A stretch of 61,597 bases of DNA, counting the filler, from Globobulimina sp. (lineage: Eukaryota), in the NCBI GenBank assembly GCA_003354225.1. It is 11 parts of 11 records of this genome, joined end to end, with 100 filler letters (N's around TTAATTAATTAA, not from the genome) between each part and the next. Parts side by side here need not be neighbours in the genome. Positions count along the whole stretch, not along the records: positions 44,891 to 50,393 come from PIVH01000537.1; 10 more parts are not named here. The stretch is one strand, 5' to 3'. Shown here piece after piece: positions 11,237 through 56,096 of this stretch (positions are counted from its first letter, which is position 1; each line of letters opens with the position of its first letter). The position numbers were made by a program, and so were the translations under genes. The notes under the pieces are model-generated. The model was not told the DNA's origin and did not search any database. It saw only the letters and a list, made by a program, of their open reading frames with translations.

Positions 11237-14005
11237 TGCAACAGCTCTTGCAAAAATGCGATATCAGACCCCAGCGGCTACCAAACTCGTTCAGTTTCGT
11301 GCACTTTTCAAGATGGCGCCATGCAAAGCGATGAAAGTAAATGTGATCCGAATGGGAATAATCCCAAACCGCAATCTGGCCGAACCTGTAACAATTATAT
11401 CTGTGATTTCTGTAAAATCCAACCCGCCACCGGTTATACAGTGTGCGGTATTCATGGAACTTGCGAATCTGAGCTGAAAACTTGTGATTGTGACAGCGGA
11501 TTTGCTGGAGACCGTTGTGATGAACCGCCGGGATTGAATTTTACTGGTATTGTGTCTCAGGCGTTTAAAAATGTCAGCAGTGGGAGGACTATCGCATTGC
11601 GAGCCAATCCGTGCTATCTATCCGACCCAAATAACTCTGTCAGTGCCAATTTTGATGTCACTTCCAACACAGAAACAGTGCCCGTGGATGGCGTGACGTC
11701 CTTATCGACATTGTATGTAGGCGCGACTGTAGGAGTACGCTGGAGAAGTGCGGGTGATATTGAATTATTGGCGGTGGGTCTGATTGAAGTGGATGCCGAA
11801 GGAGAGCCTGTGGACAACGCTTGGCCTTTTTATGTAGGCTCCTCCTTAGCGAACGATGATAATACCTGCGATGACCTAAACAGTACTAATTATGATGGTT
11901 GTTTGCAGAAATTGGAATGCAATGATTTTGGCTTTGCTATCCCTGTCAGTACGACGCCAGGCACTTATAAAGTAAGTATTAGATTTAACAATGAATTTTC
12001 CATTACGTCTCCCACTGTGACGGTGATTTGCAATGAGAATAATTGTAACAGTGTCGGGCATGGTACGTGCAATGCAGATAATAGTGGCTGTTCCTGTGAG
12101 CATGGTTGGAGTGGCTACTCTTGCGAGTATTCCTTGTGCAATGTATGGTCGTTTGCTATGTGCGCCAGAGATGATGAAGGTAACTGCGGTTCTTTGGGCG
12201 CTACGGATATTAAACCCAAATGTTTTAGTTCGAGCTGCAATCCGGTGGCCAGCAATGAGACTGTAAGTGATTCCAATCAATGTGGTTATAATTGCAGTGA
12301 TGTTCATTTTGAAGGGGATTATTGCGAGATACCCACCGATCACTGTGCGACTTTAACAGTCAACAAGTGTCCTGAAGCGGCACTTTGTGAATGGGACAGT
12401 GTTGCAGCTACGTGTTTGTATAAAGAATGTTCACAGTTTGGGACGGAAGAGTTATGTACTATTAACTCCACCTATTACTCGTCCAATGATAGCTGGGCCA
12501 TGTTTTGTGAATGGATTGATGATGGCAGCAATACCTATTGCAATCGGGTCACGTGTGGTGATGGCACATTGCCGGAGTGTTCCAATGGGGCCGTTCGACG
12601 CGCACTATTTGACCAATACACTGATGAACCAGTGAGTATCTGTCATGCTTGGTTTTGTGACTGTACATACGTGGACGAGTCTGACTCTTCGCATTGGAAA
12701 GTGTCCACCGGCTCTACCTTGATCCAATCCATTGATAGTTCGTATAATTATAACGATCCGCCCAATGGCGATGCATTGACTGCAAGCTATATAGATGCGG
12801 ACGGCTTGGATTTATTCACTTGCAATGAGTGTTCATTAGATTGCCAGAATGGTGCGACCGTAGACAGTGCGTGCACGCACTGCGCGGACGGCTGTCCAGA
12901 GGAAGTATCGCCATTTCGAACGGGTAGAGAATGCGATCAGGTCTTTTGGGTTGGTGAGTTTCGGCTGAATGTTGCATGGAACCTGGCTCGCATCGAGAAA
13001 CCCGCCGAATTCGATGGCTTAATTATCCAGGATTTGGCGTATTTTTTAGATACGGATACGGCGCATATCTCGATATGGCAAGTGAAGCCGGATACTGATG
13101 GCAGTATTGTCTATTTTCGATATTTATTCGATACCGATGACGAAGATTCGGCGCAGATTGTTGGCGGAGATGTGATGGCTTTGGCAACCAAAGAGATAAA
13201 AGATTCCACCTCCACTGCCTCTCGTGGCTTTATGATGCAATATACCGATCCGAGTGTAGCTTATTCGTTTTGTATACCGACAAAGGAAGAATGCGACCCC
13301 AGCAAACAAATTGACATCACACTCATATTTTATATCTGTGCTGCGGGCTCGTTTGGTTTCATTGTTTTATCTGTCATTCTTTATCGTTGCATCACGCGAG
13401 GTAAACGACAGAGAGCGTACGAGGAGAAAGTGCGGGAAGTGCGACAGGCGCAGCTAAGATTGATGGAACATCATAGTAAGGCACGGCGGGTGGGAATGAG
13501 AGATGTGTCCAAGAACAGAGCACATAAAATCCATAAAGCTCATAAGAAGAAAGATAAAGCACAAAAAAAAGAGATTCACGCACGTGCAAAAGAAGAGAAA
13601 AAGTTGAATAAAATCAAGGAAAAAGAAGTTGGCAGTTATGAGGTGGATGGGAAGCTTGCGGCGTCGGCCCATGGACAGCAAGACAGTCAGTTGGAGTTGG
13701 AACAATATCGGAGATATAGCAAGCAGCAGTATGCGTCCTCTGCGCGGGGACAAGAGGCGTATAAACCAAATAAAGCTGCCTATGCGGCATCGGCTTATGG
13801 CCAGGAAGCGTATAAGCCGCCATTGCAAATACAGAGACCACAACAAGCACAAAGTGTGCATTCAAGATCTCATGGAAATAGTGCCGCTGCAGATAATTTA
13901 CCACATGGATGGAAGATATATTACAATAATGATGGGGTTCCGTATTATTTTAATGCAACTTCTGGTGAAACTACATGGAGACATCCGAGTAAACCACCAA
14001 AATAA
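11237..14005 (+). CDS. Type I membrane protein: TSP1 repeat, EGF-like/Cys-rich repeats, SEA-like juxtamembrane domain, TM, cytoplasmic WW domain; 5'-truncated
   Basis: Frame is open from 11237 (CNSSC..GYQTRSVSC..C..KP..RTC = TSP1). EGF-like HGTC..CxC..G(F/W)xG..C, TM at ~13316-13384, WW domain LPHGW..YYFN..TTWRHP. Confidence 0.85.
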   Translation, partial: CNSSCKNAISDPSGYQTRSVSCTFQDGAMQSDESKCDPNGNNPKPQSGRTCNNYICDFCKIQPATGYTVCGIHGTCESELKTCDCDSGFAGDRCDEPPGLNFTGIVSQAFKNVSSGRTIALRANPCYLSDPNNSVSANFDVTSNTETVPVDGVTSLSTLYVGATVGVRWRSAGDIELLAVGLIEVDAEGEPVDNAWPFYVGSSLANDDNTCDDLNSTNYDGCLQKLECNDFGFAIPVSTTPGTYKVSIRFNNEFSITSPTVTVICNENNCNSVGHGTCNADNSGCSCEHGWSGYSCEYSLCNVWSFAMCARDDEGNCGSLGATDIKPKCFSSSCNPVASNETVSDSNQCGYNCSDVHFEGDYCEIPTDHCATLTVNKCPEAALCEWDSVAATCLYKECSQFGTEELCTINSTYYSSNDSWAMFCEWIDDGSNTYCNRVTCGDGTLPECSNGAVRRALFDQYTDEPVSICHAWFCDCTYVDESDSSHWKVSTGSTLIQSIDSSYNYNDPPNGDALTASYIDADGLDLFTCNECSLDCQNGATVDSACTHCADGCPEEVSPFRTGRECDQVFWVGEFRLNVAWNLARIEKPAEFDGLIIQDLAYFLDTDTAHISIWQVKPDTDGSIVYFRYLFDTDDEDSAQIVGGDVMALATKEIKDSTSTASRGFMMQYTDPSVAYSFCIPTKEECDPSKQIDITLIFYICAAGSFGFIVLSVILYRCITRGKRQRAYEEKVREVRQAQLRLMEHHSKARRVGMRDVSKNRAHKIHKAHKKKDKAQKKEIHARAKEEKKLNKIKEKEVGSYEVDGKLAASAHGQQDSQLELEQYRRYSKQQYASSARGQEAYKPNKAAYAASAYGQEAYKPPLQIQRPQQAQSVHSRSHGNSAAADNLPHGWKIYYNNDGVPYYFNATSGETTWRHPSKPPK

Positions 14006-16848: not shown

Positions 16849-17763
16849 TATTTTATTTATTTTTTGTGGAAATTTGTCAAAATCATATCTACTCCATATG
16901 GTCGATTAGAGAATATTTAAATAAGATAGGACAACTAATAAGTAATTTTATTGTTGTACATGTAGAACGTTTTTGTAACTTTTTTAAAAAAACAATCCGC
17001 TAATCCGATAATCATAAGCGCAGATTTTCGACCTAAAAACTTCTTTTATATTTGAGTGTAACAATAAACTTTTTTCACCATCATTTCCTCGGTTTGTTCT
17101 CCTCGCCAAAATATGATCAACAAAACAGATGTATACTACGTGATACGATAGTTTTCAGAAATAATGTCTATTATCCTGACTGTGCACAAAAACAGGTTTG
17201 TCTACCGTTAGAATGGGTAAAATTACATATATTAAATTCAATATGATATGAATTAAGCAGTCTGACCAATTAAAACGGTGTCATCAACAGAAACAAGTAC
17301 ATGCTCTAATTTTGTGATGGTAAATAAAATAATTGGTAATCCGATATGATATGTTATTCTTTTTTTTGTTATTGTGGTGTATCTGTAATTTCTGGAGATT
17401 TTTCCTGACATATATCATAATCAAATAACTTAAATTTACCATTTTCCGAAGAATTTTACGGAAAGTTTAATCAAAAAAAATTCTATATCACCATTACAAG
17501 ATTACAGTCTATGCTTGTTTCTATTGCAAAGCAATCCTTTTTGTGCACAGTGGACATTTACTTTAGTGTACATTTAATTTATTGTTCGGATTTTACGGAT
17601 AACATAACTAACTGACGAAATATTGAAATTAATATTTAATATTTATTTAAGCAATTTCCAATTAAAAACTAACAAATTGCCAATTAATTAAAGACAAACT
17701 AACAAATTGCCACATATTACAATTACAAAAGCCAGCTCCAGTTTGATCTATAGATAGCTCTCA

Positions 17764-18897
17764 ATGTTAATGGCATCTCCATACAGCGCTATGAACGCCA
17801 AATCTGGCGAATTAGTGTCCAAATTCCGAAAAATGCTGCCAGCCAACAAAGTGGTTGCAGAGTACGTATGGATCGGTGGATCAGGCACCGACTTACGAAA
17901 CAAGACGCGTTTAATCGAAGGTTGTAATTCCATCTCATCATTAGAAGAAATTCCAGCGTGGTCCTTCGACGGTTCCTCCACCGGCCAGGCCCCAGGCAAT
18001 GACAGCGAAGTGATGCTCAAACCAATCAAATATGTGCCCTGTCCGTTCCGTGGCGATAACCATATCATAACTTTATGCGAAACCTTTGACAGTGATTGGA
18101 ACCCAATTCCAACCAATCGGAGGGCCTTCGCACGCAGTATATTTGAGGCTGAGTCCGTGCGAGCAGCAGAGCCAATGTTTGGATTAGAACAAGAATACAC
18201 TTTATTCACTGCGGACGGTTCTCGTCCCTTAGGTTTCCCAGTTATGGGTTCTCCACTGCCCCAAGGACAATATTACTGTGCCACCGGTGTTGAGAATGCG
18301 TTTGGTCGCCATTTATCCGAATCGCATTTATTTGCGTGCTTATATTCTGGATTAAGTGTTTCTGGCACCAATGCGGAAGTGATGCCGGGTCAATGGGAGT
18401 ATCAGATCGGCCCTGTTGTGGGCATCGACGCAGCCGACCAACTGTGGATTGCTAGGTACATTATGGAGCGGATCGGCGAAGAGATTGAGTGCAAAGTGAG
18501 CTTAGATCCGAAGCCAATGAGAAGTGGCGACTGGAATGGTGCGGGAGCGCACGCGAATTTTAGTACGGTGGAGATGCGGAAAGAAGGTGGCGAAGGTTTG
18601 CAAGCCATATTTGATGCGATTAAAAAGTTAGGACCAAAGCATATGGAACATATGGCACTGTATGGCTCCGGGAACGAGTTTAGAATGACTGGGTTGCACG
18701 AGACTGCCAAATATGACGAGTTTAGCTCAGGTGTGGCAAACAGAGGCTGCTCCATTCGGGTCACGAGACTGACGGAACAAAATGGTGGCGGATTTTTCGA
18801 GGATCGGAGGCCAAGCGCCAATATGGATCCATATAATGTTTGTGCAATGTTATGCAAAACCACAATCTTAGAAAAACAACAAGCAAAAACACTGTGA
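17764..18897 (+). CDS. GLUL: Glutamine synthetase type II
   Basis: EYVWIGG, WSFDGSSTGQA, GLEQEY, NAEVMPGQWEYQ, DWNGAGAH, NRGCSIRV, EDRRP. Confidence 0.97.
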   Translation: MLMASPYSAMNAKSGELVSKFRKMLPANKVVAEYVWIGGSGTDLRNKTRLIEGCNSISSLEEIPAWSFDGSSTGQAPGNDSEVMLKPIKYVPCPFRGDNHIITLCETFDSDWNPIPTNRRAFARSIFEAESVRAAEPMFGLEQEYTLFTADGSRPLGFPVMGSPLPQGQYYCATGVENAFGRHLSESHLFACLYSGLSVSGTNAEVMPGQWEYQIGPVVGIDAADQLWIARYIMERIGEEIECKVSLDPKPMRSGDWNGAGAHANFSTVEMRKEGGEGLQAIFDAIKKLGPKHMEHMALYGSGNEFRMTGLHETAKYDEFSSGVANRGCSIRVTRLTEQNGGGFFEDRRPSANMDPYNVCAMLCKTTILEKQQAKTL

Positions 18898-34076: not shown

Positions 34077-35954
34077 TCAATAGTTCATATAAAAAGGATA
34101 CGGTGAGGATTCCCGGACAGCTTTAGGTTGTCTTAACCATTTAACAAATTGATGATATTCAACCATATCACGCTGATGAAATTTGGACCGGGATTCCATA
34201 AATAGGAAAGTATCAAAATATGTCGGTTCCAATTCTGTTAAATGTAAATGGTACGAAGAGGATAATTGATGAAAGGAACTCATATCAAAGCGGGAGAGTA
34301 AATCAGCAAATTGATTAAAGGCTGATGGGATCCATTCAAAATGCATATAGATTTTATATTTTATTAATTGAAGACACAACTCATAAATGAACATCATAAC
34401 GGTATATTTGCCGGACCATTTCCGGGTCATTGCATAAAAACATACCGAATTATCAATGTATAAATGCACAGCTTTGCCAGTTAAGATATGTTTATACGAC
34501 TCAATTAAAGTTAAGACGCAATGCGCTTCTTTCTGATGGATCTTCCACTGTGAATGCTGAGGTCTGAATTTGTATTTGGAATATACAGAATCAACAACAA
34601 AACCAGCGCCTGCATTGCAAGCATCAGTAGCAGCATAAATATCAATTGACGGCTTTTTGATTAAATTACTAATTGGAACAGAACGAATATAGAAAGCATA
34701 TTTAAGCCAAAACTTGAGATCATTTATAATGGAAAGGGGGAGAATGACCCAGTCGGTGCGTTTAATATGGCCATTTCGGATATTTTGATGGATGTAAAAA
34801 ATGGAATTGTAGGCCAACGATTTTGTATTTGGATTGAGCTGACTCCAATGCATAATTTTGCCAGTCAATGATTCCAAGGCACGACCGGAGATAATGCGAT
34901 ATTGGATAACCCACGAAATGAATTTTGTTAATTGACGGAAGGTTTTTGGAGGAATTTGGACAGTTTTATGTTGTAAATTCCATTGCATGCCATGGATAAT
35001 GGATTCTTGGCAACAATGTACGGACTTACCATGGGAGACTGTGACATGTAATTCTTTGAACAAATCATCAAAGATCTGTTCCATTATCAGGCAATCCTGT
35101 TTGGTCTTTGCTGCCATGGTAAAGTCATCGACATGAACACGAATACAATTTAATAAATGAGGATATTGTTGTTTTAATTTACAATTATCAATGATCCAAA
35201 TAAGGAGTGTCGCAAAGTATTGACAGTTGGCGGGGGCGGAGGAGACCCCATATGGCTGCTTTCTGTCTCGGAAGCGGAGGCCAAAGAGGGAATAGCCGAG
35301 GAAATCAGCATCAACCTCTGACAAACCAATCTGTCGGAAGAAATCGGCTAAATCACGGAGGGCAAAATAGTTCTTATCATGGAGTAAAGTGGCATAGTCC
35401 TTCAGATTTGGGAGGTCTTTCATGGTACATTTCTCCTTTCGAATCCATTCATTGATGGCTGTGGTGTTGATTTGGTGGAAGGAGCCATTTCGAATGACAC
35501 GGACTTTGGTGTAAAAGCCGAAGTGATCCTTCTTCGGACAGCAAAAGATCATTATTATATATTTAGGATCATAATCAATAGGCTCAATCTGCCCATTTTG
35601 GCATTCTTCGGTGATTTTGTCAATAACAGCGATTGCTTCATTTATGGAATTGACTCTGTTATAAATATATTGAGATAACTTCGAGGGATTATCCTTTTTA
35701 TTGAACGTTTTTAGCCACAAAGGGAAGCCATCTTTGATAAATTTCAATTCAATCTTTGAATTGGATTTTTGTGCGAGATAACGTTCAAAGGCGGCAATAT
35801 TCAAAGTGTTCTTGTATTTGGACCCCTCACTGTGCAAATTTTGCAAAAACTCAACTTTTTCAGCGAGTTCTGGGGAAATTTCTGGGATAAATAACAGAGC
35901 CAATAATTGGTGCGGAGAAAGAGAAACGTTTTTGATAAATGAATATCTGCACAT
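34077..35954 (-). CDS. Reverse transcriptase-RNase H, DIRS-type
   Basis: RT: PKKD..KVRVI..S..INE, RDLADFFRQI, PYGVSSAP, HVDDF. RNase H: TDAC.G.G, IHQKE, IDN, ADLLSR. Confidence 0.9.
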   Translation of the reverse strand: MCRYSFIKNVSLSPHQLLALLFIPEISPELAEKVEFLQNLHSEGSKYKNTLNIAAFERYLAQKSNSKIELKFIKDGFPLWLKTFNKKDNPSKLSQYIYNRVNSINEAIAVIDKITEECQNGQIEPIDYDPKYIIMIFCCPKKDHFGFYTKVRVIRNGSFHQINTTAINEWIRKEKCTMKDLPNLKDYATLLHDKNYFALRDLADFFRQIGLSEVDADFLGYSLFGLRFRDRKQPYGVSSAPANCQYFATLLIWIIDNCKLKQQYPHLLNCIRVHVDDFTMAAKTKQDCLIMEQIFDDLFKELHVTVSHGKSVHCCQESIIHGMQWNLQHKTVQIPPKTFRQLTKFISWVIQYRIISGRALESLTGKIMHWSQLNPNTKSLAYNSIFYIHQNIRNGHIKRTDWVILPLSIINDLKFWLKYAFYIRSVPISNLIKKPSIDIYAATDACNAGAGFVVDSVYSKYKFRPQHSQWKIHQKEAHCVLTLIESYKHILTGKAVHLYIDNSVCFYAMTRKWSGKYTVMMFIYELCLQLIKYKIYMHFEWIPSAFNQFADLLSRFDMSSFHQLSSSYHLHLTELEPTYFDTFLFMESRSKFHQRDMVEYHQFVKWLRQPKAVRESSPYPFYMNY

Positions 35955-36298
35955 AGTTTAAAAATAATTGTTGTCAGCAACTAGGAGAAGTTGCGAGAAG
36001 TTGAGAGAAAATTTGAGAAACGGAGAAATTAAATAAATTGAAATGACAGCAATTTGGCTGAAATATAGGAATTTAAAACACAACAAAGTCAGAGAGATGA
36101 CAAAGTAATTTGTGAGCTGTACAAAAATTTGATTGCATTGCTCATTTTGTGTGATAAATTGATTGATATTTTTGAAACCCAATCCCAGAATATATAATTT
36201 GCAATAAATATAATGAAATACATCGAAAGCAATGCATTGATATGGTACATAAATATTGCATAAAAATAAAAATAAGTTGAAGATATAATAAGTTGAGG

Positions 36299-37330
36299 TT
36301 AATTTGGCGGAGCTGGCGGTGATTTCGCCGCTAATTCACATTTACATAATGGATGATTGACGCCGGGATGCAAAATACATTCATGTTTCCTTGGACAATT
36401 ATCGCCTTTTCGACACTCGCCCGTAGCATTGTAAAATGCGCATTTGTCACTACGTCTAAAATCAAAATAAGTACCTGAACCTTGCAAAAATTTAGTGATT
36501 TTCTTGCAATTTACGATCATATAATTGTTATCCCAATGCGTAGGCGAGTGAGACCGGCGATTATTGTTCGAATTTTTGTTGGAAGGCCGACGATTATTGT
36601 TCGAATTATTATGATTATTCGGATATTGCTGCGGATTTTTATCGTGACGTTTCTGTTTTTGATCAATAAGTTGCTTCTTTGTGAGTTTCTTCTCAGTTTT
36701 CGATGGATTGGTAATTTGATCGGGGTGAAATGATGAAAAATTGTCGGATAAAAACGAAATGAATGACATATTGGATTTGCGATAAGCAGCATTTTGGAGC
36801 AAATTCGATGAAAATGTGGAATATAGGGACTGATCCTGGTCGATTGCTAAAGTCATACCTTTCTGGATCCAAGTCCAAAAATCCTGGGCCAAAAACGTCG
36901 CATCTTTCATTAATGGATGTAATAAATTGATTGTTTTGTTCAAATCAAAACTTTTATAGTCTAAATAGACTCGAATGTCACGATAAAGCAACTGCTGTTC
37001 GTCAGAGACTGGCAATAATTTGTTGAGTCGCGAGGATAGTTCAAAAATGAAATCGCGAATATACTTCAATGTATGGATGACATTCCATTTTGATTTGAAT
37101 AATGAGTTTAATTCGGAGGTTGGCGTCAATTTGTCAATATATTTCATGGATTGATTTAAATATTTGCAGATACGGTATGTGAGGGCAATGAATGAGAAAG
37201 TCTGAGTTTCGACCATGCCACAGATAAATTTGATAATTTGTATCTTTGATAATATAATGTCAGAGCGCTTGATGGATGACTGAATTTTCGCTGCATTTGA
37301 GGGCGCGTGGAAATTGATTAAATGTTTCAA
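36299..37330 (-). CDS. Gag-like protein with C-terminal CCCH/Cys-His finger
   Basis: CAFYNATGECRKGDNCPRKHEC..HP..HPLC, preceded by an N/R-rich linker. TTG start only, so it may be a spliced exon. Confidence 0.65.
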   Translation of the reverse strand: MKHLINFHAPSNAAKIQSSIKRSDIILSKIQIIKFICGMVETQTFSFIALTYRICKYLNQSMKYIDKLTPTSELNSLFKSKWNVIHTLKYIRDFIFELSSRLNKLLPVSDEQQLLYRDIRVYLDYKSFDLNKTINLLHPLMKDATFLAQDFWTWIQKGMTLAIDQDQSLYSTFSSNLLQNAAYRKSNMSFISFLSDNFSSFHPDQITNPSKTEKKLTKKQLIDQKQKRHDKNPQQYPNNHNNSNNNRRPSNKNSNNNRRSHSPTHWDNNYMIVNCKKITKFLQGSGTYFDFRRSDKCAFYNATGECRKGDNCPRKHECILHPGVNHPLCKCELAAKSPPAPPN

Positions 37331-37570
37331 TGTGATGGGATCTGAAGTTATTGGGCAATTTGCATTGGATTTGTATGGAAGTGCACTGAATTTGAGGCAC
37401 TGTACGGGAGTTTCTCAAATTTGTGCTGGATTTGTGCCATAAAATTGGATATAATTTGTGCAAAACGGTGAGGAGAACACTGGGAAAAGGGATAGTTTTC
37501 AGAACAAACTCCATTAATTTTCAGAGTGAGAGGGAAAGAATGTACACAGCTCGCAAACGAATGAACGATA

Positions 37571-39187
37571 TCAATAGAAAGAAGGGGTCAATCCAAGCAA
37601 ACTAAAGAAACAAAGGAGTGGTTGCGGAGCACAGTCAATCCCACGGAAAGAGAGAGAGATACAGAAAAGGAGAAAATAAGCAACAAAACCTTCTAAATCT
37701 TGGACGATATCACGGCCTGTGATACGGCGACCATTTTCAGTTAATTTCGCATTGATTAATTTATTTACAATGGAAACCTCTGCGTTTTCGACAGATTTGA
37801 TTGCCAAATCGACCATCGTCAAGACGCAGTCTTGTTTCTTCTTTTTATCAACACCGGGAGCTGTGATTAAATATTTATTGGTCAAAATGAGACGTTGCAA
37901 GTTGGTGGTATTTGTGCTATATTGTAATGGTGGCTTGGTGGCATAATTCTTTTTGTCTAAGTCATGCCGTAATTTGTGATGTTGACGGCGAACAGATTCG
38001 GTGATCGATGCTTTGAATGCATCCAAATCTGATTTGGTAATTTGCAATGAATTTGTATTTGTGAGCGGAGCAATAAATTCGGGGAACCGAAAACCAGAGG
38101 GTACAGTTTGCCGGGATCTGACAGCAACGGTGTTGGTGGTTTCTGTGGTTGTATGTCTGTTACGTTTCGGTGGTTTGCGGCCACTGTCAGATGGTGGAGA
38201 ATCTGTTGTTGATCGCGGACGTTTCTTTGGATTTGGGTCTGGCGAAAATTTGGAGATTAGTAATGGTGGAATCTCGCGGTCTTTCATAATTAATGGGAAT
38301 TTACTTAAGTTTACGATGACATTGTTTGTGTTAATTATGCCTGTTTTCAATAGTCGTTCTTTGATAATTGTCCCAATGTGTTGTACAAATGAAGCGGCTT
38401 CGTCGTCATCCGCAATTTTTGCAAAGTATTTGATATGCGATAGCAACGTAGCATGGATTGGCAAATTGAGCGCGAAGTCAAACAATAATTTGTTCGCAAC
38501 GATTGCCGAGATAACGGTTGATCGCTTAACGTCGGTGCTACGATTGTTATTTTCCAACGACGCCATTTCTTTTCTCTCCAAAACAATGGAATGAAAGAAA
38601 TTGTGATAATTCTGTTCCATCGCCTTATTTGTGGCCATTTGTGCATCGTCGGTGATATTTTGCGTACTAATCATCTCAATTAAACTGTTGGTGGCTTGCG
38701 AGAATTGCAATGCATCATCATTGGCAACGGAATTTGTGTCAGATATTTGTGAGGAAGGAGATAATGAATAACTTAAACCATTAAAGAGAGAGGAAGGTGG
38801 CGAGCCTTCTTCATTTGCAACTTCATGGTTTGAATGACCTAAAAGTAAATCATCGTCGTCGTCATCATCATTGAAATTGATATTGTCACTATTTAGGAAT
38901 TCGACGGCTTTAAATTGTTTGATTTCATCGTATGTTGCATAGTCCGGGGTCCCTTTGAATTTTTCGAAGGATTTGTCATTGAACGGCGTGCAGCAAAGGA
39001 GTAATAAATCATGGAGACTGCCAATACTTTCTTCATTTGGAACACAACGTTCTTTCACGATTTGGAGAAATAATTGAAACGATGCGAGCGAGGAACGATT
39101 TGCCGTTGGTGCAAAAAAGAGAGAGGTATGTTTCTTTTGTATAAAATGGAGGAGAAATGTAATTTCATTGGCATTGAAATAATCGCT
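37571..39187 (-). CDS. Element ORF1 of unknown function; 5'-truncated
   Basis: Frame is open to the contig edge. Acidic patch, NLS-like PKKRPR and PPKRNR. The last ~40 codons are intron-like pyrimidine tract. Confidence 0.6.
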   Translation of the reverse strand, partial: SDYFNANEITFLLHFIQKKHTSLFFAPTANRSSLASFQLFLQIVKERCVPNEESIGSLHDLLLLCCTPFNDKSFEKFKGTPDYATYDEIKQFKAVEFLNSDNINFNDDDDDDDLLLGHSNHEVANEEGSPPSSLFNGLSYSLSPSSQISDTNSVANDDALQFSQATNSLIEMISTQNITDDAQMATNKAMEQNYHNFFHSIVLERKEMASLENNNRSTDVKRSTVISAIVANKLLFDFALNLPIHATLLSHIKYFAKIADDDEAASFVQHIGTIIKERLLKTGIINTNNVIVNLSKFPLIMKDREIPPLLISKFSPDPNPKKRPRSTTDSPPSDSGRKPPKRNRHTTTETTNTVAVRSRQTVPSGFRFPEFIAPLTNTNSLQITKSDLDAFKASITESVRRQHHKLRHDLDKKNYATKPPLQYSTNTTNLQRLILTNKYLITAPGVDKKKKQDCVLTMVDLAIKSVENAEVSIVNKLINAKLTENGRRITGRDIVQDLEGFVAYFLLFCISLSFRGIDCAPQPLLCFFSLLGLTPSFY

Positions 39188-44890: not shown

Positions 44891-47800
44891 ACTGATAAAT
44901 ATCATTAATATAACGATGTATTTGTTGTACATAACGAATGATTGTATGATCCAATGTTTGCTGCAATTTACAAATCCATAATAAAGCATTGATATTATCC
45001 GACACAATATGAATATATTCAAAACTACACAAGAAAGATGATGGCAGCTTCATTATTTGTTGTAACACAGTGTTAATACCCATCATTTCAACAATGTTAA
45101 TATCAAAAGCATAGCCAATGGTTAACCAATCTTGTTGTACCGGGACAATGTCGTACTGCAAGTATTTATGACTAATATGCAAATTCAAATCAATGGCAAT
45201 ATCAGTTTGATACTTCAAATCCGCAAAGTTGTGATATTTCAGTGCATGATGATGAAGTCGGTGCACCTCAATTAACAGACCAATTTCTGCACAATTACCA
45301 CCAACAATGGATCCATCAGTAAACGCATACAGAGTAACATTTGAATGATTAATCGCGTCTTCCTCTGTATACAAACCATTGATAAACGTCGCATAGTCAT
45401 ATTTCTGCACAAAGGATGGGATGTATTTAATTTTACGTCCATGTGAGTTAATGGCAAAACACCAATGATAATGGATTAAGCGTAATATTTTATACTTCAT
45501 TGCAAGCAAAAAGATACGGAACAAAGGATTTCGTTTATCATAGGTTTTCATATATTTTAGCTTCGATTTTTGTGTACGACTATTCACCGTAGATAGCATA
45601 TAATTGTTCCATATCGGCATCCACCGATCGCGAATTAAAATATATAATATATTACGATTATGTATATATAGCAAACTGACCCAAAGCCGAATCAACTTAA
45701 TATGAATGAAAGTATCAAAGTCCACAAACGGCGTAAGAATTACCAGTATATCCAAAGGAATCGTATTTAAGGCACCATACAACAATTTGATGACACGGTA
45801 ATACATTTTTTTCAATGGTTTAACGTCATTTCTGTTGGACACGCAGCTAAATAATAACACAGGATACTCAATTTTAGACAGAATCACTGAATGCAGATAA
45901 TGGTACAATTTCTTTGTACGAAATCGCCGAAAACGATATCGTATATTCCTCATTTCTCTATAGTCCAAAAAGATATTTTGCACGATATGGTTTATGTGTG
46001 TGCGCGCCGATAGATTATATGACAAATAATAACCAACATATTTAACATATTGTTCTGGATTACTTTTAGCAATGCCATTAATGGTCAGCACTGGTGTTGG
46101 AAGATTGCATTTTTTCTTCATAGCATCTGTATGGAAGACAATGTATTTAGTTTTCTTTGCTGAGAGGGACATTCCATTCAACTTCAGCCATCCAATGATA
46201 TTATCAATGGCATATTGCAAACCATATTGAATATCGTACAAGAATACAGCCTTCAAAACTGTCCACAAAACCAAGTCATCCACATAAATATACAATTTTA
46301 TTGGCAAATATGACGGTATAACATAATACAAAGGGTCCAGATAAAGCATATTAAGGAAAGGGCTCAATGGCCGTCCCTGCGCCAATCCAATCAATTGTAA
46401 CATCCATTGCGATCTAACCCCATTCACAGTTACTGCGCACCAACAATTTACAAATAAATCATATATCGCTTGTATATATTTCATAGGAAATCCATAATAA
46501 TAATGCAGTCTTTGTACCAAAATATCATAACAAACAGAGGGGAAATCCTGGGAAATATCTGAGAAAATCGCATATGTCGGGATCTGCTTATTCCAGCCAG
46601 TATCAATGTCGTTGATCAATAATGTAACAATATCTCTCGTTGACTTCCCCTTCATATTAGTAGTGTTGTTCGGGTGTATCGAGTCGCAACTAATCACAAA
46701 CTCGATGCCTTTATATAACAAACACATCTCATACATCTTTTTTATACATCCATTCAACGAAATTTCTCGATAATTATCAACATAATGCGGATCACGCCTT
46801 GGTTTGGCGATTGGTGTAATGTATGTTATTTTATGTATCCTCGGCAGATATCCAGAGCAATAAAACAGGTTTAAGTATGCATACAGAAACTCCACAATAT
46901 ATGGATTCAAGTATACTAATAATTGTATATGCAGACCAATGCCATGATTACACCGTTTATTCATTATTCGTAATACATATTTAATCAAATGGCGAGAAAA
47001 TGGCTGCATGAGCGCGAGATTCGCGTTCTTATATAACAAATCATGGACAAATAGACGTGGATTATGAACAGCATTCGCCGCCAAAAGATCACCAGAGATA
47101 TTCTGCATAATATCAGTACATTTATATATATTATCACATAAAGGGATGTTTTTAAATTTCAATCTATTCAATGGATGGTATTGTATGTTTGTCAAATAAC
47201 GGTGACAGAATTTATTAGCAAACAAATTCGCTTTTGTATGACTGTCATGTACAAAATTGTTGGCACCCGGATCCAACGCAGATTTATGTATGAGATATGG
47301 GACATATTTCTTACGCTGTGAAATACAGCCAATTTTACGAAGATATCGCATCGATTTGTATATGTCTCGTTTCCCTGCCACAGTTTGGTCCATATTTTGC
47401 TGCAAATACGCTTTCTTTGCTTTATCACACAAATTCTTCAACTTATTTTTACATTTCTTATATCTCAGATGTTCAGCAGCTCGTTTTATGATATCAGGGC
47501 AGGAAAGCCAGGCTCGTTTGAGTCGTTTCAAATGTGCGCCCATATCAATAATCGTATTCGTACACCAAAGCTGCCGATGTTGGTACTTATGCCGCTGTGT
47601 TTTTCCAATGTACTGTGATGCATTATTATGAAGGATGCGATAAAAAGCATGTGCAATATCATCAATTATCGAATGTGTGTAGGGTTGTACCAATAACTCA
47701 ATCCGTTTCTGCAATGCTTTCAAAGCCCGCGTTGTATATAACTGATACAAATACAGCGATTTAGGACGGTTAAAACGATAATGTACATGATCCACATTAA

Positions 47801-48812
47801 AATATCTATTTTGTACACATCCAAATGCAGCAACATGCCGTGGCAAATATATGATAGTAAATATCATAAAGTGATCAGAGAAACGTTTAATTTGAGGTTG
47901 ATTATCATCAACGCAGTTTATTATGTAACTGTCATAATTTTGCAGCAATTTATCAGAAAATAAATGCAGATCCAATATATTCCCTTTATAATGTGTGGCA
48001 ATGCGCTTTGTATTAATAACAGAAACATGTCTGTTATCAATGATTTTATCCATCCATACAAACTCCGAACGGTCCTGTTTGCTGTATCCTGCATAATCCA
48101 AACGTGAATATAGTTCATTATGAAAGTTAAAATCCCCACCAACAATAAACGTGTTAATGTTATTATTGGTTTGTTGTAATGTATCATTGTGCCACTTCTT
48201 TTGTTTATGATGTTGAATAATATAATCCATGAAATATTTAAAGATCTGGAGGTCGGGGACAGATAAACTACGATTCGGAGAACGATAATAGGCAGCAAAC
48301 AATATAGATTGTCGATATATTGTACCAGGTCCAGGATGCACTACAATCCACGTTGTGTAATGTCCATTTGCTTTATTCAATAGATGCCAATCAACAACGT
48401 TTCCGAGAATATGCTGTTGTGTTTTCTGCTCAATCTGAATAATATCAACATATTCTTCTAATCCGTTTCTAACATAAATAACATTTTTCAAATGTTGGTC
48501 GTACATTGGTACATCATTGATTTTATTAAAATAACCATCAATATCTGGAGGATGCATATCTGTTTTATAATGTATACAAACTTCCTGCAACGCAATGAAA
48601 GTCGGCTCTAATTCAGCAATAATATCACTCAATAGATCTAATTTTGCAGTGTTAAATGTATCATGTCCCCGTTGTGAGAATACGCCATTAACATTGAGCG
48701 ACATCAAAGATAGAGACTGATCGAAATAGTTCTTCGAAATGTGATTAATAACATTGTGACTGTCAATAATATCTGGATTTATCACATTATATTTATCATT
48801 AGCGGCCATCAT
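44891..48812 (-). CDS. LINE ORF2: AP endonuclease, reverse transcriptase, RNase H
   Basis: APE: SLNVNG, LQE, YRSP, GDFN, SDH. RT: YREISL, GLAQGRPLSP, YVDD, KYVG. RNase H: TDGS, VEMMGI, SDN. No stops in >1300 codons. Confidence 0.93.
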
Positions 48813-49404
48813 CAAATATCATAAATTAAATTATCCCAAATCCACAGAGAAATCCAGAAACATATTACAGACACAAATTGTAAACAAAAACAAAAACAAA
48901 ATGAAAAAACAAGATAAATATAGAAACACAAACAAGTAATCAAGAGATCCAAAAGCAAAGAACATAAAAGAAAAAGTAAAATGCTCATAATATTATTTGA
49001 TGAGTTACCAATTATTTGATTAACATCGTGAGAGAAAGGAGAGAAGAAAAGGAAAATAAAAAGTGAAACAAAATAAAATCTAGAAATAATAATAAAAGTA
49101 CATAAAACTAAAAGGAAATCTAAAGATAAATAAGAAAGTAACAAAATCACAGCAAATGGAGAGATTACGGGATCCTTCAAAGAAAAATAAAAAGAAAGAG
49201 TCAGGTCCAAACAAAGTAAATCAAATCCAATGCAAAGTTGTGTGAAAATAAAAGCAAAAAAAGCAAAGTTGCAAAACAAAGTATAAAAGCAAAGCTGCAA
49301 AACAAAAACAAGAAATAAAATTAAGATTAAAAGTAAACGTAAATATAAATAGAAACACAAAGCGAACCATAAAAAATGTATATGATTCAAAATAAAATGG
49401 TAAT

Positions 49405-50391
49405 TTAAGAGGGAGGAAAGCGGCCATATTTCCGTTGAAACTGCGTATGTTTGTCTTGTAGACGTCGGCTGCGCCGCAATTTCTTATCTTTACTCAAAGT
49501 CTTTTTCCATTCTAATTTGTTAACAGACCTCTGAAAAATTCTATGTTGCTCTGGCACAATATCATATGTGTTGTTATTTGTAGGCTGATCTGCTATATCA
49601 ACCAAAGTCAATTTATAATCAGATTTCCGGCGTTTCCGAGATCGTTTTTTATTTTTATTTGTTGAATTAATATGTGATTGTTGTGACTGTGTTAATTCAA
49701 TTTGATTATCCTGCGACTGCAAAATATTATAGTTTATGTCACTGTCGCCAGTACTTGAAGTTGCAAGAAGTTTTTCATACGACACGCCCCCCTTTCGTTC
49801 ATGGACAACAGGGCTCCGTAACAAGCTATGTTGCGGAGAAGGATTCAGGGAATGTGCATCAACTACGTCGGTATTCAAAGAATTGAATGCATCATCGAGA
49901 TCATCCAAATCCATATTGTTGGCATCAATATGATCAACAACATTCGTTGTAAGCAAATCATTTTCATCACTCTTCAAATCATAATTGCGTCGATTCTCAA
50001 TCTCCGCAACAGAATTATAAATTGTACCAGATCGTAATCTGCGGACGCCAGAGGGCACAGTGCCATTATTAATCAAAGTGTCATCGACCGTGGAATCTAA
50101 GGTCAATGAGAGAGATGGACCGTCATTATCATCTGCAACCGTATCCAACGCATGTAATTGAGCCGCAGTCATAGTATCTAATTCAGTCGATTGCAAATCA
50201 GCATATTGCACATTACGGGGCCCTGTAAATGTAATCGGGAAGGTATCAGCCAATGTAGGAGACAGATTAGGTGGTAAAACCGGCGGAAGTGATGCATCCA
50301 TCTCATGTTTGGATGTCGATGCCGTAGGAATGAAAGAGGGGGCATCAGCATTTAAGGCGCCATTTACAACAGCAACAGCAGCAGAAATCGT
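49405..50391 (-). CDS. Putative LINE ORF1, C-terminal disordered part with PAM2 and basic motifs
   Basis: Frame is open to the contig edge. LNADAPSFIP, RRLRSG, KKRSRKRRK, RRSRRL. Confidence 0.6.
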   Translation of the reverse strand, partial: TISAAVAVVNGALNADAPSFIPTASTSKHEMDASLPPVLPPNLSPTLADTFPITFTGPRNVQYADLQSTELDTMTAAQLHALDTVADDNDGPSLSLTLDSTVDDTLINNGTVPSGVRRLRSGTIYNSVAEIENRRNYDLKSDENDLLTTNVVDHIDANNMDLDDLDDAFNSLNTDVVDAHSLNPSPQHSLLRSPVVHERKGGVSYEKLLATSSTGDSDINYNILQSQDNQIELTQSQQSHINSTNKNKKRSRKRRKSDYKLTLVDIADQPTNNNTYDIVPEQHRIFQRSVNKLEWKKTLSKDKKLRRSRRLQDKHTQFQRKYGRFPPS

Positions 50392-50393
50392 AT

Positions 50394-50493
50394 NNNNNNN
50401 NNNNNNNNNNNNNNNNNNNNNNNNNNNNNNNNNNNNNTTAATTAATTAANNNNNNNNNNNNNNNNNNNNNNNNNNNNNNNNNNNNNNNNNNNN
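50394..50493. other. Artificial contig linker
   Basis: N44-TTAATTAATTAA-N44. Confidence 0.99.
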
Positions 50494-51138: not shown

Positions 51139-54081
51139 TTAAATATGTATTAATTTTCCATTGTGATCATATATTTTATGTATTTGAAATGCAATTTTAA
51201 CATTCAACACATCGATATTTTGAATATCTTTCATTTTAAACAACGACGAGCCTTTATATAACTGATTATTTGTCAACACGCACGAATCCCATTTGTTATA
51301 TGATAATTGGATGAATGATAAACCATATTTCAATTCAATTTTACTTATCGATGCATGTAACTTATTTTGTGTGGCGATAAATCCACGAAACATATCCTCC
51401 TCTTTCTGTCCATCATATTTCTTATAACACCGAAAATGCAGTGTACATTTATCACCATTTGGATTGATATTAAATTTATATTTTTTGGAATATAAACTCT
51501 TTTTAAATGATGAATCATTAATATGTGAAACAGACAAATTCATTTCAATCGAATATACATATTTTATACCAATATTATTCTGCAATAAATACGATATATA
51601 TTTATCAAATAATAAGGTATATAAATCTGGGATTAGTTTCTCACATTCTTTCTTATTGAACCATACTGTCTTATTATTGTTATTTCCTTCGTTGTTATAT
51701 TTTGTAATACATTCAAATAATTGCTGCATATATTTATTATGCACACTGTGTTCACTGTCATAGTTAACCATATTTGAGAGCATTTTTATTATTTTGCGTT
51801 GATACTTTTTTTTGAAAAAAATATTATTTTTATCATTATACCATTTACCACTTATTATCTGTTGGTATAATGTCAGTGATAACACTGAATCCGAATGTGA
51901 TGAGCCATTATATACAATATCAATAAAACCTAAGCTGCCACCAAATATAATACGTTCCTTCTCTGCTGGGAAATAACTAAAATTGCTCGTATCTGTGTGT
52001 ATCAATCAAGCATTGACTTGTCAGACATTATGTCACTCAAAAAAAAAACTTCAGTCAACTAAGAAATGACAATTAATGCACACATACCTAAATACACCAT
52101 ATTCTGTTCATTACCGAGCACTTTGCCTAATTTCAACACAATATTTGTAGTCTGGTTGTCAATTTTCTGCGCCACCACATATTTAGTAGTCAACGATGAT
52201 GGTCGATCGAACGACACACAACATTTCGGAAAGGATAACTTGGTATTAAGTCCATGATAAACGCGTTGTTTCTCAGACAACACATCACCAAAACACCATA
52301 TAGACTCTTTTAAATACCTTAAAAAATTCGCAATCTCACAATGTCTTCTTTTCACATCACTCATAGTTTCATTATTGTCCAATTTCCTGCATCCAATATT
52401 GCGAAAATCATTGATAATCTCATAATAATTTGTACATATTAGCACTGCAATAATATGATTAATAGATATTCTCTCCCCGTATTTTATTGATTTCTTCATC
52501 CATCGAAACTCGCGTTTACACTGCAAATTCTTTCCAATATCACTCCGTAAATAATCGTTTGCTTTAATGACTAATAATTCATAGTCATCACTGCTCATTG
52601 AATGTATATTATTGCCTAATAACTCACTCCGCAAATCCTCATATGTCGCTGGACAATAATATGGATGGGAGCTCTTCCAATAATCAAATGATTGGCCAAA
52701 TGAGGACTTTAACATAGGAGTATTGCGTTTTACAATGCCTTTATACTCAGAACCAGTGCCAAAAACAGTGGAAATCTCCGATTGAGTGTCATCGATTGTG
52801 TCTGCATCGTCTGTTTCTATATTGCCATCTTCCACAGTTTCCTTACTATCTGAACCTTTATTTGCTGATTTGTTGGTTGTTGTGGTTAGAGATGGCTTGA
52901 ATGCAATGCGTGGCAACGATGATAATGCAAATATATTGCTACTATCTGCTTCGACTTCGGTTATGAATTTTTTACCGTCTGATATTAAGCCAGAATGGAT
53001 GAATAATCCATGGATTATATCCAAATATTCAATCAATGCGATTTCAGACATTTCTTCGGGCGATCCATCCTTGGTTTCATCAGAAATCCAATATAAATCA
53101 CGTCTCCCTGGTAAAGTAGAAAAAAAAAGAGAATTGCCATGGTCCACATTTTAAAGTGACACTGAAAACATTTACTTTAAAATCATGGCACTATGACACA
53201 CTGAAGCAAAGGCAAATATATATGGGTAACGAACCTTTATTTGATAATGCCCGATAGATTTGTTTCTTTCCATCATTCCGAGTGAGACATGGACACATTT
53301 CGGGGTGATTACAGTTTGGTACTTTGGTCTTTATATATTGCAGTAACTCTTTATCTGTATCATTGTTCATGTGATATTTTTTGACATGAAAATAATCAGA
53401 CAACAATTTATTTCGATTATATCCTTTCAATTTTGAAATAAATTTAGTCATCGATGAATATATGCTGTCCGTTGACTCATTTTTGACTGATTTAAATTTA
53501 ATAAAAATACTATAATATCTCTGTATAAATGAGATCCGTTCAATAAAATCACAGTCGCCAATTGAACACGAACCGTATGCCATTTCCCGATTCTTCTCTC
53601 GTCGTTTCGGTGCAATCTCATTCCATTCACGTTCTATGGCTTTGTCACTGTAAAATATCGTGTTTCCATCAATGGTTTTTGCACAGAAAAACGGTACAAA
53701 AAATATTCTTAACTTTGTAACAGAATTCGCATCGGTTTTGTTACCATCATAACTGATATCATCTAACATGGATGTTATGTCATCGTCGTCTAATTCTTCT
53801 TGAATTTGTTTGATTTTTGATGCTTTTACTTTGCAACGAATTTGCTTTTTGAGTATATCCAATGAGATGATGGAGGCAGACGAAAATTTTATGTCGTATT
53901 CATCAGAAGATTTTAAATAACGCATCGAGTCGACTTGTAAGGTGATGCATATCTGACCTTGAGATAAATGTGAATATTTGGATAGATTACTGAATCCAGA
54001 CTGTAATGATATTCCTGAATCACGTCGTCGTGCACCTAATAGTGATGTACGACGAGTGTTTAAATGATCTAATGTTAGCAT
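51139..54081 (-). CDS. Three-exon protein with Cys/His-rich helical region and ADP-ribosyltransferase-like (R/H-S-ExE) domain (introns 53108-53234, 51993-52087)
   Basis: Phase-1 GT-AG introns join three track ORFs in frame. Motifs RVYHG, PSSLTT and YLD..SYFPAEKERIIFGG. Confidence 0.7.
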
Positions 54082-54138: not shown

Positions 54139-55996
54139 ATGACGACAGAAGCACCAGAATCGTCAGTAAACTCACTGGGCCACTTCAGTGTTAACACCGG
54201 TGAATTTGTATCGCAGCTATACATTTCAGTACCGATTGGCTTAATATTAATATTTTTATATATGATTGTACGACAAATCTCATTACGAACATGGGAAGTA
54301 CGCCGAAAATACGCCGAAATACTAGTCGAGGAAGAAATGGGTGACGAGACTGACAGTGACGACCCCTTTGCAGAAACAGAAGAATTTAAATTACCAAAAT
54401 TTAGTACAACAATAACATATCCACGAATTTCAACTGGATTTTTCTTTTGGATGTACGATGTTTGGACCATGGATACAAATACATTTTATAAACATGCTGG
54501 TTTTGATGCATTAGTATTTAGATTATATTTAAAAGGCTGTATGTTTATTTGCCTCGCATCATTGCCATATGCTCTCTGTGTATTACTTCCTGTATATGCT
54601 ACCTCCGAAGTTACGATCAATTCGTTTTTAATGTGAGTGCGGAGTGCAAGGATCTTCATCATCCTCTAAGTGACTCACTCACTCACTCACTCGCTCAAAA
54701 ACTTTACACACTGACACCATGTCACTTGCCTATGTTTTTAATTGTGACAGAATGTACATAATATGGATGATCCATTGGCAATAATCTCTATAAATTCCGT
54801 GGGTGAATCAAGCAACAGATTATATGCAGCCGTGCTCGGCTGTTATATCTTTACATTCATCGCTTTATATTACTTATCCAGAGTATATTTAGCCGTCGCT
54901 TATGCCACCGATCAATTTTTAATTGGAAGCAATCGTTTATTGGAAGTGGACAAATTGTCCTGGTTCAATTACAAAGAGATGATTGACGACATCGTGGATG
55001 TAAATGTGAGAGTGGCCCGGGCCCCGATTGAGTTGACAAAGAATTATTTATCAAAAGTTAAACGACTGGTTGACAAAGAACAACATGTTCGGCAACCCAG
55101 CGAAGAGTTGGTCGCACCGATTGAAAATGAAGAGGATGATATTAAATATGAACCTAAATCAGACGAAGAAAAGACGGAATTGCTCAGTGACGATGGCTAT
55201 AATTCAGACACTGTGCGTATAATAAAGAATAGTGTGCCGTCCATCGATCGCTATACCATAATGATCCGTGATTTGCCGAAACCGTTTCGGGACGAAACCA
55301 CATTAAGACAGTTTATGAACCGTTTATTTCCAAATAAAATTGCTGTTGTTGTGATTGTGGTGGATGTCCGGGACTTGACAAAGGTGCAAAATGAGATTAA
55401 ATTTCATGTCAAAGCGCTCAAAACGTTGTCTGTCAAACACGAGTTCGAGTTAGATAACTTATACGATGATGGGAAGTTGCCTACGATTTACGAAGGAACT
55501 AAATGTTGTGGATGTTGTGGGGAACAAATTAATTTGATAACGTATCATCGCACAAATAAAGAAGCGTTAATGAGCAGATTCAATAAGATGAAGAAAGAGG
55601 GATTGCGGGCTACGCCCACCGCCTTCGTGACTTTCAATTGTTTAAAAGCCGCATCCATAGCGATATCGTGTCCCATCCGCTTTGGTGTCAGCAATTTGAA
55701 AATCCAAAAAGCGCCGTACCCAAACGATTTATATTGGGATAACTTGAAATATTCCTCCAATGACTTAATCCCTTATAACTTATTAGTAGCCATCGCCATG
55801 TTTTTTTTATTGATATTCTGGTCGATTCCGGTGGCCGCCATTCAGGGTTTGGCCAATTTGGAGACTATTTTCGATGCATTCGACGCAAACATCGAGGATT
55901 ACTTTAACGAGACCACCGTGTCGTGGATGCAAGGCTCGCTCACTGTGCTCATTTTGGATTTGTGGTTGGCCATAATCCCAATCATCGTTGAGCTAT
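54139..55996 (+). CDS. CSC1/OSCA/TMEM63 mechanosensitive channel (intron ~54610-54750); 3'-truncated
   Basis: HAGFDALVF, LLPVYAT, YTIMIRDLP, AFVTF, APYPNDLYWDNL, FWSIPVA. Confidence 0.93.
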
Positions 55997-56096
55997 NNNN
56001 NNNNNNNNNNNNNNNNNNNNNNNNNNNNNNNNNNNNNNNNTTAATTAATTAANNNNNNNNNNNNNNNNNNNNNNNNNNNNNNNNNNNNNNNNNNNN
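55997..56096. other. Artificial contig linker
   Basis: N44-TTAATTAATTAA-N44. Confidence 0.99.

Follow-up and report, generated by a model that had tools for sequence, protein, structure and literature searches.

Does a long interspersed nuclear element (LINE) encode its own docking peptide for the host poly(A)-binding protein (PABP)? This question is raised by a 61.6-kb stretch of Globobulimina sp. DNA (GenBank assembly GCA_003354225.1; hereafter the window), in which an open reading frame (ORF) upstream of a LINE ORF2 was found to carry the peptide LNADAPSFIP, a close match to PAM2, the short linear motif that binds the MLLE domain of PABP. The window consists of 11 contigs of ~5.5 kb each, chained by N-run/TTAATTAATTAA/N-run linkers, and is not one genomic stretch. 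The motif lies in the contig at 44891..50393, whose genes are all on the minus strand. The upstream frame, here called ORF-A, and its motif have the following layout:

50355..50326, minus strand: PAM2-like core, LNADAPSFIP in translation, with the preceding G-A at 50361..50356.
50391..49405 (contig edge 50393), minus strand: ORF-A, 328 codons plus a stop (49407..49405), truncated at the 5' end where the contig begins.
49675..50391, minus strand: N-part of ORF-A, residues 1-239, motif-bearing, acidic (net charge about -23), GC content 0.425, predicted to be disordered.
49408..49674, minus strand: C-part of ORF-A, residues 240-328, strongly basic (net charge about +18), GC content 0.363.

Translation of the minus strand from 50394..48700 reads ...TISAAVAVVNGALNADAPSFIPTASTSKHEMDAS..., and the motif that the initial annotation had placed at 50326-50355 was reproduced at exactly these coordinates. 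The segment GALNADAPSFIP comprises LNADAPSFIP plus its two preceding codons. The frame around it indeed reaches the contig edge, as had been proposed, being open from 50391 to the stop at 49407..49405. According to the sections of PMC7356810 used here, the PAM2 consensus is LNxxAxEFxP with Leu3, Asn4, Ala7 and Phe10 as anchors; on MLLE, Leu and Phe fill two hydrophobic pockets, Asn holds a beta-turn and Ala faces the surface. All of L, N, A, F and the closing P stand in register with this consensus in LNADAPSFIP, and its description as a close PAM2 match holds.

The match is real and rare as a sequence pattern. Among the 123,190 six-frame residues of the window, LNxxAxxFxP occurs a single time, at LNADAPSFIP. 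The number of strict matches expected by amino-acid composition is 0.011 in the long ORFs of the window (48 stop-to-stop frames of at least 150 codons, 18,931 residues) and 0.00019 in ORF-A, and shuffling the residues of ORF-A 200,000 times gave the strict pattern in 33 cases. A looser ELM-style PAM2 pattern gave four six-frame matches. Only LNADAPSFIP among these belongs to a long frame (346 codons from stop to stop), while the other three sit in frames of 6, 36 and 49 codons; the loose pattern is expected 0.36 times in the long ORFs and was held by 665 of the 200,000 shuffles. A search of the PDB with the 35-residue motif region returned no chain at E<=10.

ORF-A itself is truly a coding frame by its codon periodicity, which is strong in the first 239 codons (chi2 p 2.7e-16) and detectable in the last 89 (p 0.0078). 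An AlphaFold2 model made from the single sequence had a mean pLDDT (predicted local distance difference test) score of 44.9, and residues 1-155 and 178-248 stayed under 50. Across the first 30 residues, which include the motif, pLDDT was 25-28, pointing to disorder, although a single-sequence prediction with no alignment is a weak test. A disordered stretch such as residues 1-155 is the setting expected for a linear motif. The sole confident element is a long helix at residues 280-322, with block means of up to 91, and on the strength of this model the basic C-terminal 89 residues could plausibly bind nucleic acids.

Several observations weigh against a PAM2 that works for a LINE; those on the motif come first, and those on the frames and on ownership are given with them below. 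One explanation is that the PAM2 match arose by chance, or lies in an untranslated 5' leader upstream of the ATG at 50301, and has no function. This ATG, the first in-frame one of ORF-A, follows the motif by 18 codons, and just 30 open codons can be seen upstream of it before the contig ends; translation of the motif would thus require ORF-A to start past the contig edge. At position 9, LNADAPSFIP has S where the PAM2 consensus has E. The four loose matches and the loose expectation in the long ORFs also fit a chance origin, as does the scale of the survey: very many windows were scanned, so that some strict accidental matches beside LINEs are expected. Moreover, the motif is a single occurrence, and ORF-A has no relative in any searched collection that could lend it conservation support. 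Among 2,489 word-sharing candidates, none was a homologue at E<=0.01, phmmer gave no matches among 1,835,955,588 representative proteins, 72 pattern matches in metagenome contigs and 4 in viral contigs yielded no confirmed relative, and an Atlas search gave no usable match. The strict PAM2 motif was likewise found in none of the 16 proteins related to the neighbouring ORF2 (one, P0015, has a loose match). Finally, the literature searched holds no report that connects a transposon with PAM2 or MLLE, in agreement with the initial annotation, which knew of no canonical PAM2 in a LINE ORF1.

Set against these points are the rarity of a strict five-anchor match in ORF-A, by expectation and by shuffling alike, and its position in the predicted disordered part of a strongly periodic coding frame, where true motifs lie. 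There is also room for an upstream start, since contigs from three sequencing runs, described below, extend 106-956 nucleotides (nt) past the contig edge; ORF-A may well continue there. Weighing both sides, we take a functionless match to be a serious contender, though we lean against it. We slightly favour GALNADAPSFIP as a working PAM2-type short linear motif, whoever owns ORF-A, with MLLE binding predicted by analogy to known PAM2 peptides.

The downstream gene was resolved into the following parts:

44892..48815, minus strand: LINE ORF2, 1308 codons without a stop, its 3' end cut by the contig edge.
47862..48704, minus strand: APE-type endonuclease, ORF2 residues 38-318 (Pfam Exo_endo_phos 4.5e-06, Exo_endo_phos_2 3.9e-07).
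46029..46775, minus strand: reverse transcriptase (RT), ORF2 residues 681-929 (Pfam RVT_1 6.1e-14).
44892..45338, minus strand: RNase H-like region, ORF2 residues ~1160-1308, placed by profile alignment and ending before the last catalytic motif.

The presence of APE and RT domains in one frame identifies ORF2 as that of an APE-type LINE. The 5.5-kb contig contains neither end of the element. The initial annotation had further described the element adjoining the motif ORF as RNase H-bearing. Of this description, the APE and RT parts were recovered by Pfam and RNase H motifs by profile alignment, but a Pfam RNase H was found neither in the window ORF2 nor in its two close relatives, P0001 and P0002. 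These two, encoded on contigs of 6.9 and 9.8 kb, share 48% identity with ORF2, whereas the others of its 16 relatives share 20-27%, most of them with a Pfam RNase H. The window ORF2 resembles the APE-RT-RNase H-CCHC LINEs (P0003-P0016, Pfam RNase_H/RVT_3) in domain order and in its aligned catalytic motifs: FTDGS, VE..G (E) and SDN of the ORF2 family fall on the invariant DGS / E / D-S RNase H columns of the P0003-type LINEs, and the two groups are collinear (hhalign probability 100%, E 9.6e-44). In addition, the sisters P0001 and P0002 end in a Cys/His motif that aligns with the C-terminal Cys/His region of P0003 (BLASTP E 9e-05). The ORF2 family differs from the P0003-type LINEs in its low identity to them, in an insertion inside the RNase H region and in the missing Pfam RNase H. 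On these alignments, RNase H-bearing LINE appears a reasonable label for ORF2, the domain being truncated where the contig stops. In the PDB, ORF2 gave only a weak match to chain 8ibw_C (E 0.0084), whose deposited name is 'Reverse transcriptase-like protein'. A search with the ORF2-family alignment gave 438, 39 and 66 pattern matches in metagenome, prokaryote genome and viral contigs, respectively, none of which was confirmed.

ORF-A and ORF2 are separated by 590 nt, 57% of them T on the sense strand, and this region is spanned by a third open frame:

48812..49483, minus strand: ORF-B, a 223-codon open frame (49483..48815) followed by TGA at 48814..48812.
48810..48814, minus strand: TGATG, in which one A is common to the ORF-B stop (48814..48812) and the first ORF2 ATG (48812..48810).

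Each step of the chain is a shift to the -1 frame, from ORF-A to ORF-B, which overlaps the last 26 codons of ORF-A, and from ORF-B to ORF2. The length of ORF-B was reached in none of 5,000 dinucleotide shuffles (mean 81.8, maximum 196), and the other two frames of the region contain 15 and 7 stops. In bicistronic retroelements and RNA viruses, one ORF is coupled to the next by stop-start overlaps of the UGAUG or AUGA type, and the ORF-B stop and the ORF2 start are alike in sharing one base. ORF-B departs from this type: its codons show no periodicity (chi2 p 0.88), an early ATG is missing and no homologue turned up among 1,177 candidates. ORF-B looks like a frame kept stop-free, though unlike an ordinary gene, and perhaps lets ribosomes reach the ORF2 start. 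The relay from ORF-A through ORF-B to ORF2 is a layout whose role as a mechanism is putative. It links ORF-A, by its 3' end, to the LINE layout and is silent on the motif-bearing N-part. That this is a LINE family with a canonical PAM2 in its 5' ORF and a three-frame relay delivering ribosomes to ORF2 seems to us doubtful.

Two other ways of connecting the frames were considered. A programmed -1 frameshift from ORF-A into ORF-B is not supported, as no X_XXY_YYZ heptamer was seen by eye in the 78-nt overlap, and the spacer as an intron fusing ORF-A to ORF2 was rejected, as no AG occurs within ~35 nt before the ORF2 start. The ORF-B peptide, if made, would be very hydrophobic and rich in F and L.

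The question of ownership is separate from that of function. ORF-A is plausibly linked to the LINE by its position, its strand, the frame relay, its basic helical tail and its orphan status. Opposed to these are the missing ORF1 module, the sharp break near residue 240 and the fact that the PAM2 carriers named in the cited portions of the literature are all host proteins. LINE ORF1 proteins are built from modules such as an RRM, a CCHC knuckle, a coiled coil with a C-terminal domain, an esterase or a PHD. None of these was recognized in ORF-A: a Pfam scan at E<=0.1 returned no family, hence no domain known from LINE ORF1 proteins, and the model shows just the one long basic helix. The switch from acidic to basic residues and in GC content at residue ~240 is abrupt. 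A protein of two modules would explain it, and so, equally well, would two unrelated pieces joined together, for instance a host exon joined in frame to a 5'-truncated LINE. The alternative is thus a real motif in a host gene or other unit, which could be the whole of ORF-A or its acidic N-part (50391..49675). The LINE might begin in or after the C-part, as an in-frame 5'-truncated insertion or through a low-coverage mis-join, or the whole of ORF-A might be a host gene with the LINE landed just downstream. Any of these would oppose LINE ownership and remain compatible with a working PAM2.

Sequencing data bear on this choice. The contig is contained in one sample with four sequencing runs (X1-X4), of which X1, with 92% of the sampled words, is possibly the run behind the assembly. 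Pieces of run contigs were compared with the contig at a likeness cut of 80%, a comparison in which uncovered parts prove nothing and which gives no copy number. In the RT region, pieces 80-90% alike from all four runs pile up at 46179-46914, and the X1 depth of the RT bins reaches 28.9-52.6 from diverged copies, versus about 5-9 for the contig's own pieces. On this contig evidence, the ORF2 family is repeated in the genome. At the motif-bearing end, 49859-50393 was covered in X1 by the contig's own piece alone, at a depth of 7.96. Contigs of X2, X3 and X4 carry 49819, 49904 and 49930, respectively, to 50393 with 1-3 differences at contig depths of 5-10, and extend 956, 106 and 630 nt past the contig edge. 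They have in common a C>T change at 49938 (Val to Ile) that is not in X1, so that the motif-bearing segment exists in another genotype or copy. Over the C-part of ORF-A, ORF-B and ORF2, only short diverged pieces were obtained from X2-X4, and the parts left uncovered carry no evidential weight.

A host owner of the motif would account for several of these results: the low X1 depth at the motif-bearing end as against the RT bins, and an N-part nearly unchanged in X2-X4 and continuing upstream in another genotype or copy. The genome also looks compact, so a same-strand gene less than 600 nt from an insertion would not be unlikely. However, the overlap of ORF-A with ORF-B and that of the ORF-B stop with the ORF2 ATG bind ORF-A, at least by its 3' end, to the LINE layout, and a factor of about 3 is lost by requiring a fusion to be in frame. 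The lack of relatives among 1.8 billion proteins suits a fast-evolving element ORF at least equally, and since the less conserved parts of a LINE fall below the 80% likeness cut, the absence of diverged copies says little. Our assessment of ORF-A as the LINE's own 5' ORF is evenly balanced, and that of a host gene or other unit carrying a real motif falls a little short of that point. A motif that is both LINE-owned and working we consider unlikely.

GC3 and codon usage had no power as a test of host against LINE origin (0.335 for ORF-A, 0.339 for ORF2 and 0.19-0.48 for the long frames of the window). A loose end of X2 at 49674 was set aside as evidence for an alternative continuation of the ORF; the bin depths were 0.04 and 3.4 (record 13, ~1.8), and the fitting part is only ~40 nt and could reflect a short diverged stretch or chance. 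Within the window, a tblastn search for second copies returned just the two self matches.

If the motif is translated, the PAM2-like peptide would bind the host's cytoplasmic PABP at its MLLE (PABC) domain. By analogy with solved PAM2-MLLE complexes, Leu and Phe of LNADAPSFIP would occupy two hydrophobic pockets, with Asn at the beta-turn and Ala at the surface. Should ORF-A be the 5' ORF of the element, the nascent protein could grab PABP on the poly(A) tail of its own RNA, and this capture might favour formation of the ribonucleoprotein (RNP) in cis, or protect or translate the element RNA. Should it be a host gene, its product would be one more PABP partner beside, or fused to, a LINE. The motif, its rarity, the coding signal of ORF-A, the predicted disorder and the LINE beside it are observed, and translation of the motif, MLLE binding, LINE ownership and any effect on retrotransposition are inferred. 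The lead as a whole is plausible but tentative.

The premise of the initial annotation that PABP supports L1 RNP function agrees with the cited sections of PMC7617806, in which PABPC1 forms part of the human L1 RNP and is needed for retrotransposition to be efficient. The same source describes a 'PIE' in the linker of human L1 ORF2p (residues 272-297) that binds RRM1 of PABPC1 (Ghanim et al. 2025; PMC7617806), as supported by AlphaFold3 prediction, alanine scanning and co-localisation. The PIE was proposed there to set cis-preference co-translationally, a proposal also cited in 10.1101/2025.10.09.680815. Direct docking of a LINE on PABP is thus already published for human L1, and a PAM2 route would be a new variant and not a new principle. 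Like the PIE, the motif of ORF-A would be a LINE-encoded peptide that binds cytoplasmic PABP directly and co-translationally, for cis-preference or RNP formation. In contrast to the PIE, which lies in the ORF2p linker and contacts RRM1, it is found in an upstream ORF, its predicted target is MLLE and its ownership by a LINE is putative.

Known carriers of PAM2, as far as the cited parts of PMC7356810 and 10.1101/2025.10.09.680815 list them, are Paip1, Paip2, eRF3, ATXN2 and LARP1, with PAM2w in LARP4/4B, and the peptides are 12-15 residues long. The motif of ORF-A resembles those of host partners in its L, N, A, F and P and in its predicted disordered setting. It differs from them in having S for E9, in its orphan carrier and in requiring a start beyond the contig edge.

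How LINEs choose their own RNA, termed cis-preference, is an old question that was tied in 2025 to PABPC1 binding by human L1 ORF2p, according to the cited sections of PMC7617806. If a LINE-owned PAM2 were true, distant LINEs would reach the same host factor via different PABP domains, giving a second, convergent solution beside the PIE. A LINE would then be using a motif otherwise reported, in the cited portions of the literature, just for host partners of PABP, and a simple mutable handle (F-to-A) on cis-preference would be available outside mammals. If ORF-A is a host gene, the locus would represent a transposon with an ordinary partner of PABP as its neighbour.

The remaining observations concern the window at large. 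Ten linker matches of the form N44-TTAATTAATTAA-N44 were found, in agreement with the N runs:

Linker centres: 5563, 11179, 16793, 22406, 28017, 33625, 39232, 44835, 50438 and 56041.

The 11 contigs are ordered by steadily falling length, from about 5.52 to 5.50 kb. Because the window is made of joined contigs, genes flanking a linker are not genomic neighbours, and window ORFs that appear to end in XXXX...LIN are contigs cut off at a linker. In the contig at 33681-39187, the minus-strand ORF 34080-35957 points to a pol of the long terminal repeat (LTR)-retrotransposon type, with weak matches to RVT_1 (1.3e-06) and RT_RNaseH (2e-05). Long ORFs beside it (36302-37414 and 37574-39187) had no Pfam family or were outside the Pfam scan. 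Two plus-strand ORFs, 11237-14002 and 17758-18894, have a G+C content of 0.455 and 0.481, versus ~0.30 across most of the window; one, of 922 codons, has a teneurin-like EGF and a WW domain, and the other is a glutamine synthetase.

Long same-strand ORF pairs with gaps of roughly 45-130 nt were also noted in the window; they resemble exons of one gene divided by short introns. Two such pairs were recognized by ORF layout, outside the Pfam scan:

52059-54081, minus strand: exon-like ORF pair, 53191-54081 and 52059-53147.
54139-56052, plus strand: exon-like ORF pair, 54139-54636 and 54763-56052.

These paired ORFs with short gaps suggest that the source organism is a compact, intron-bearing eukaryote.

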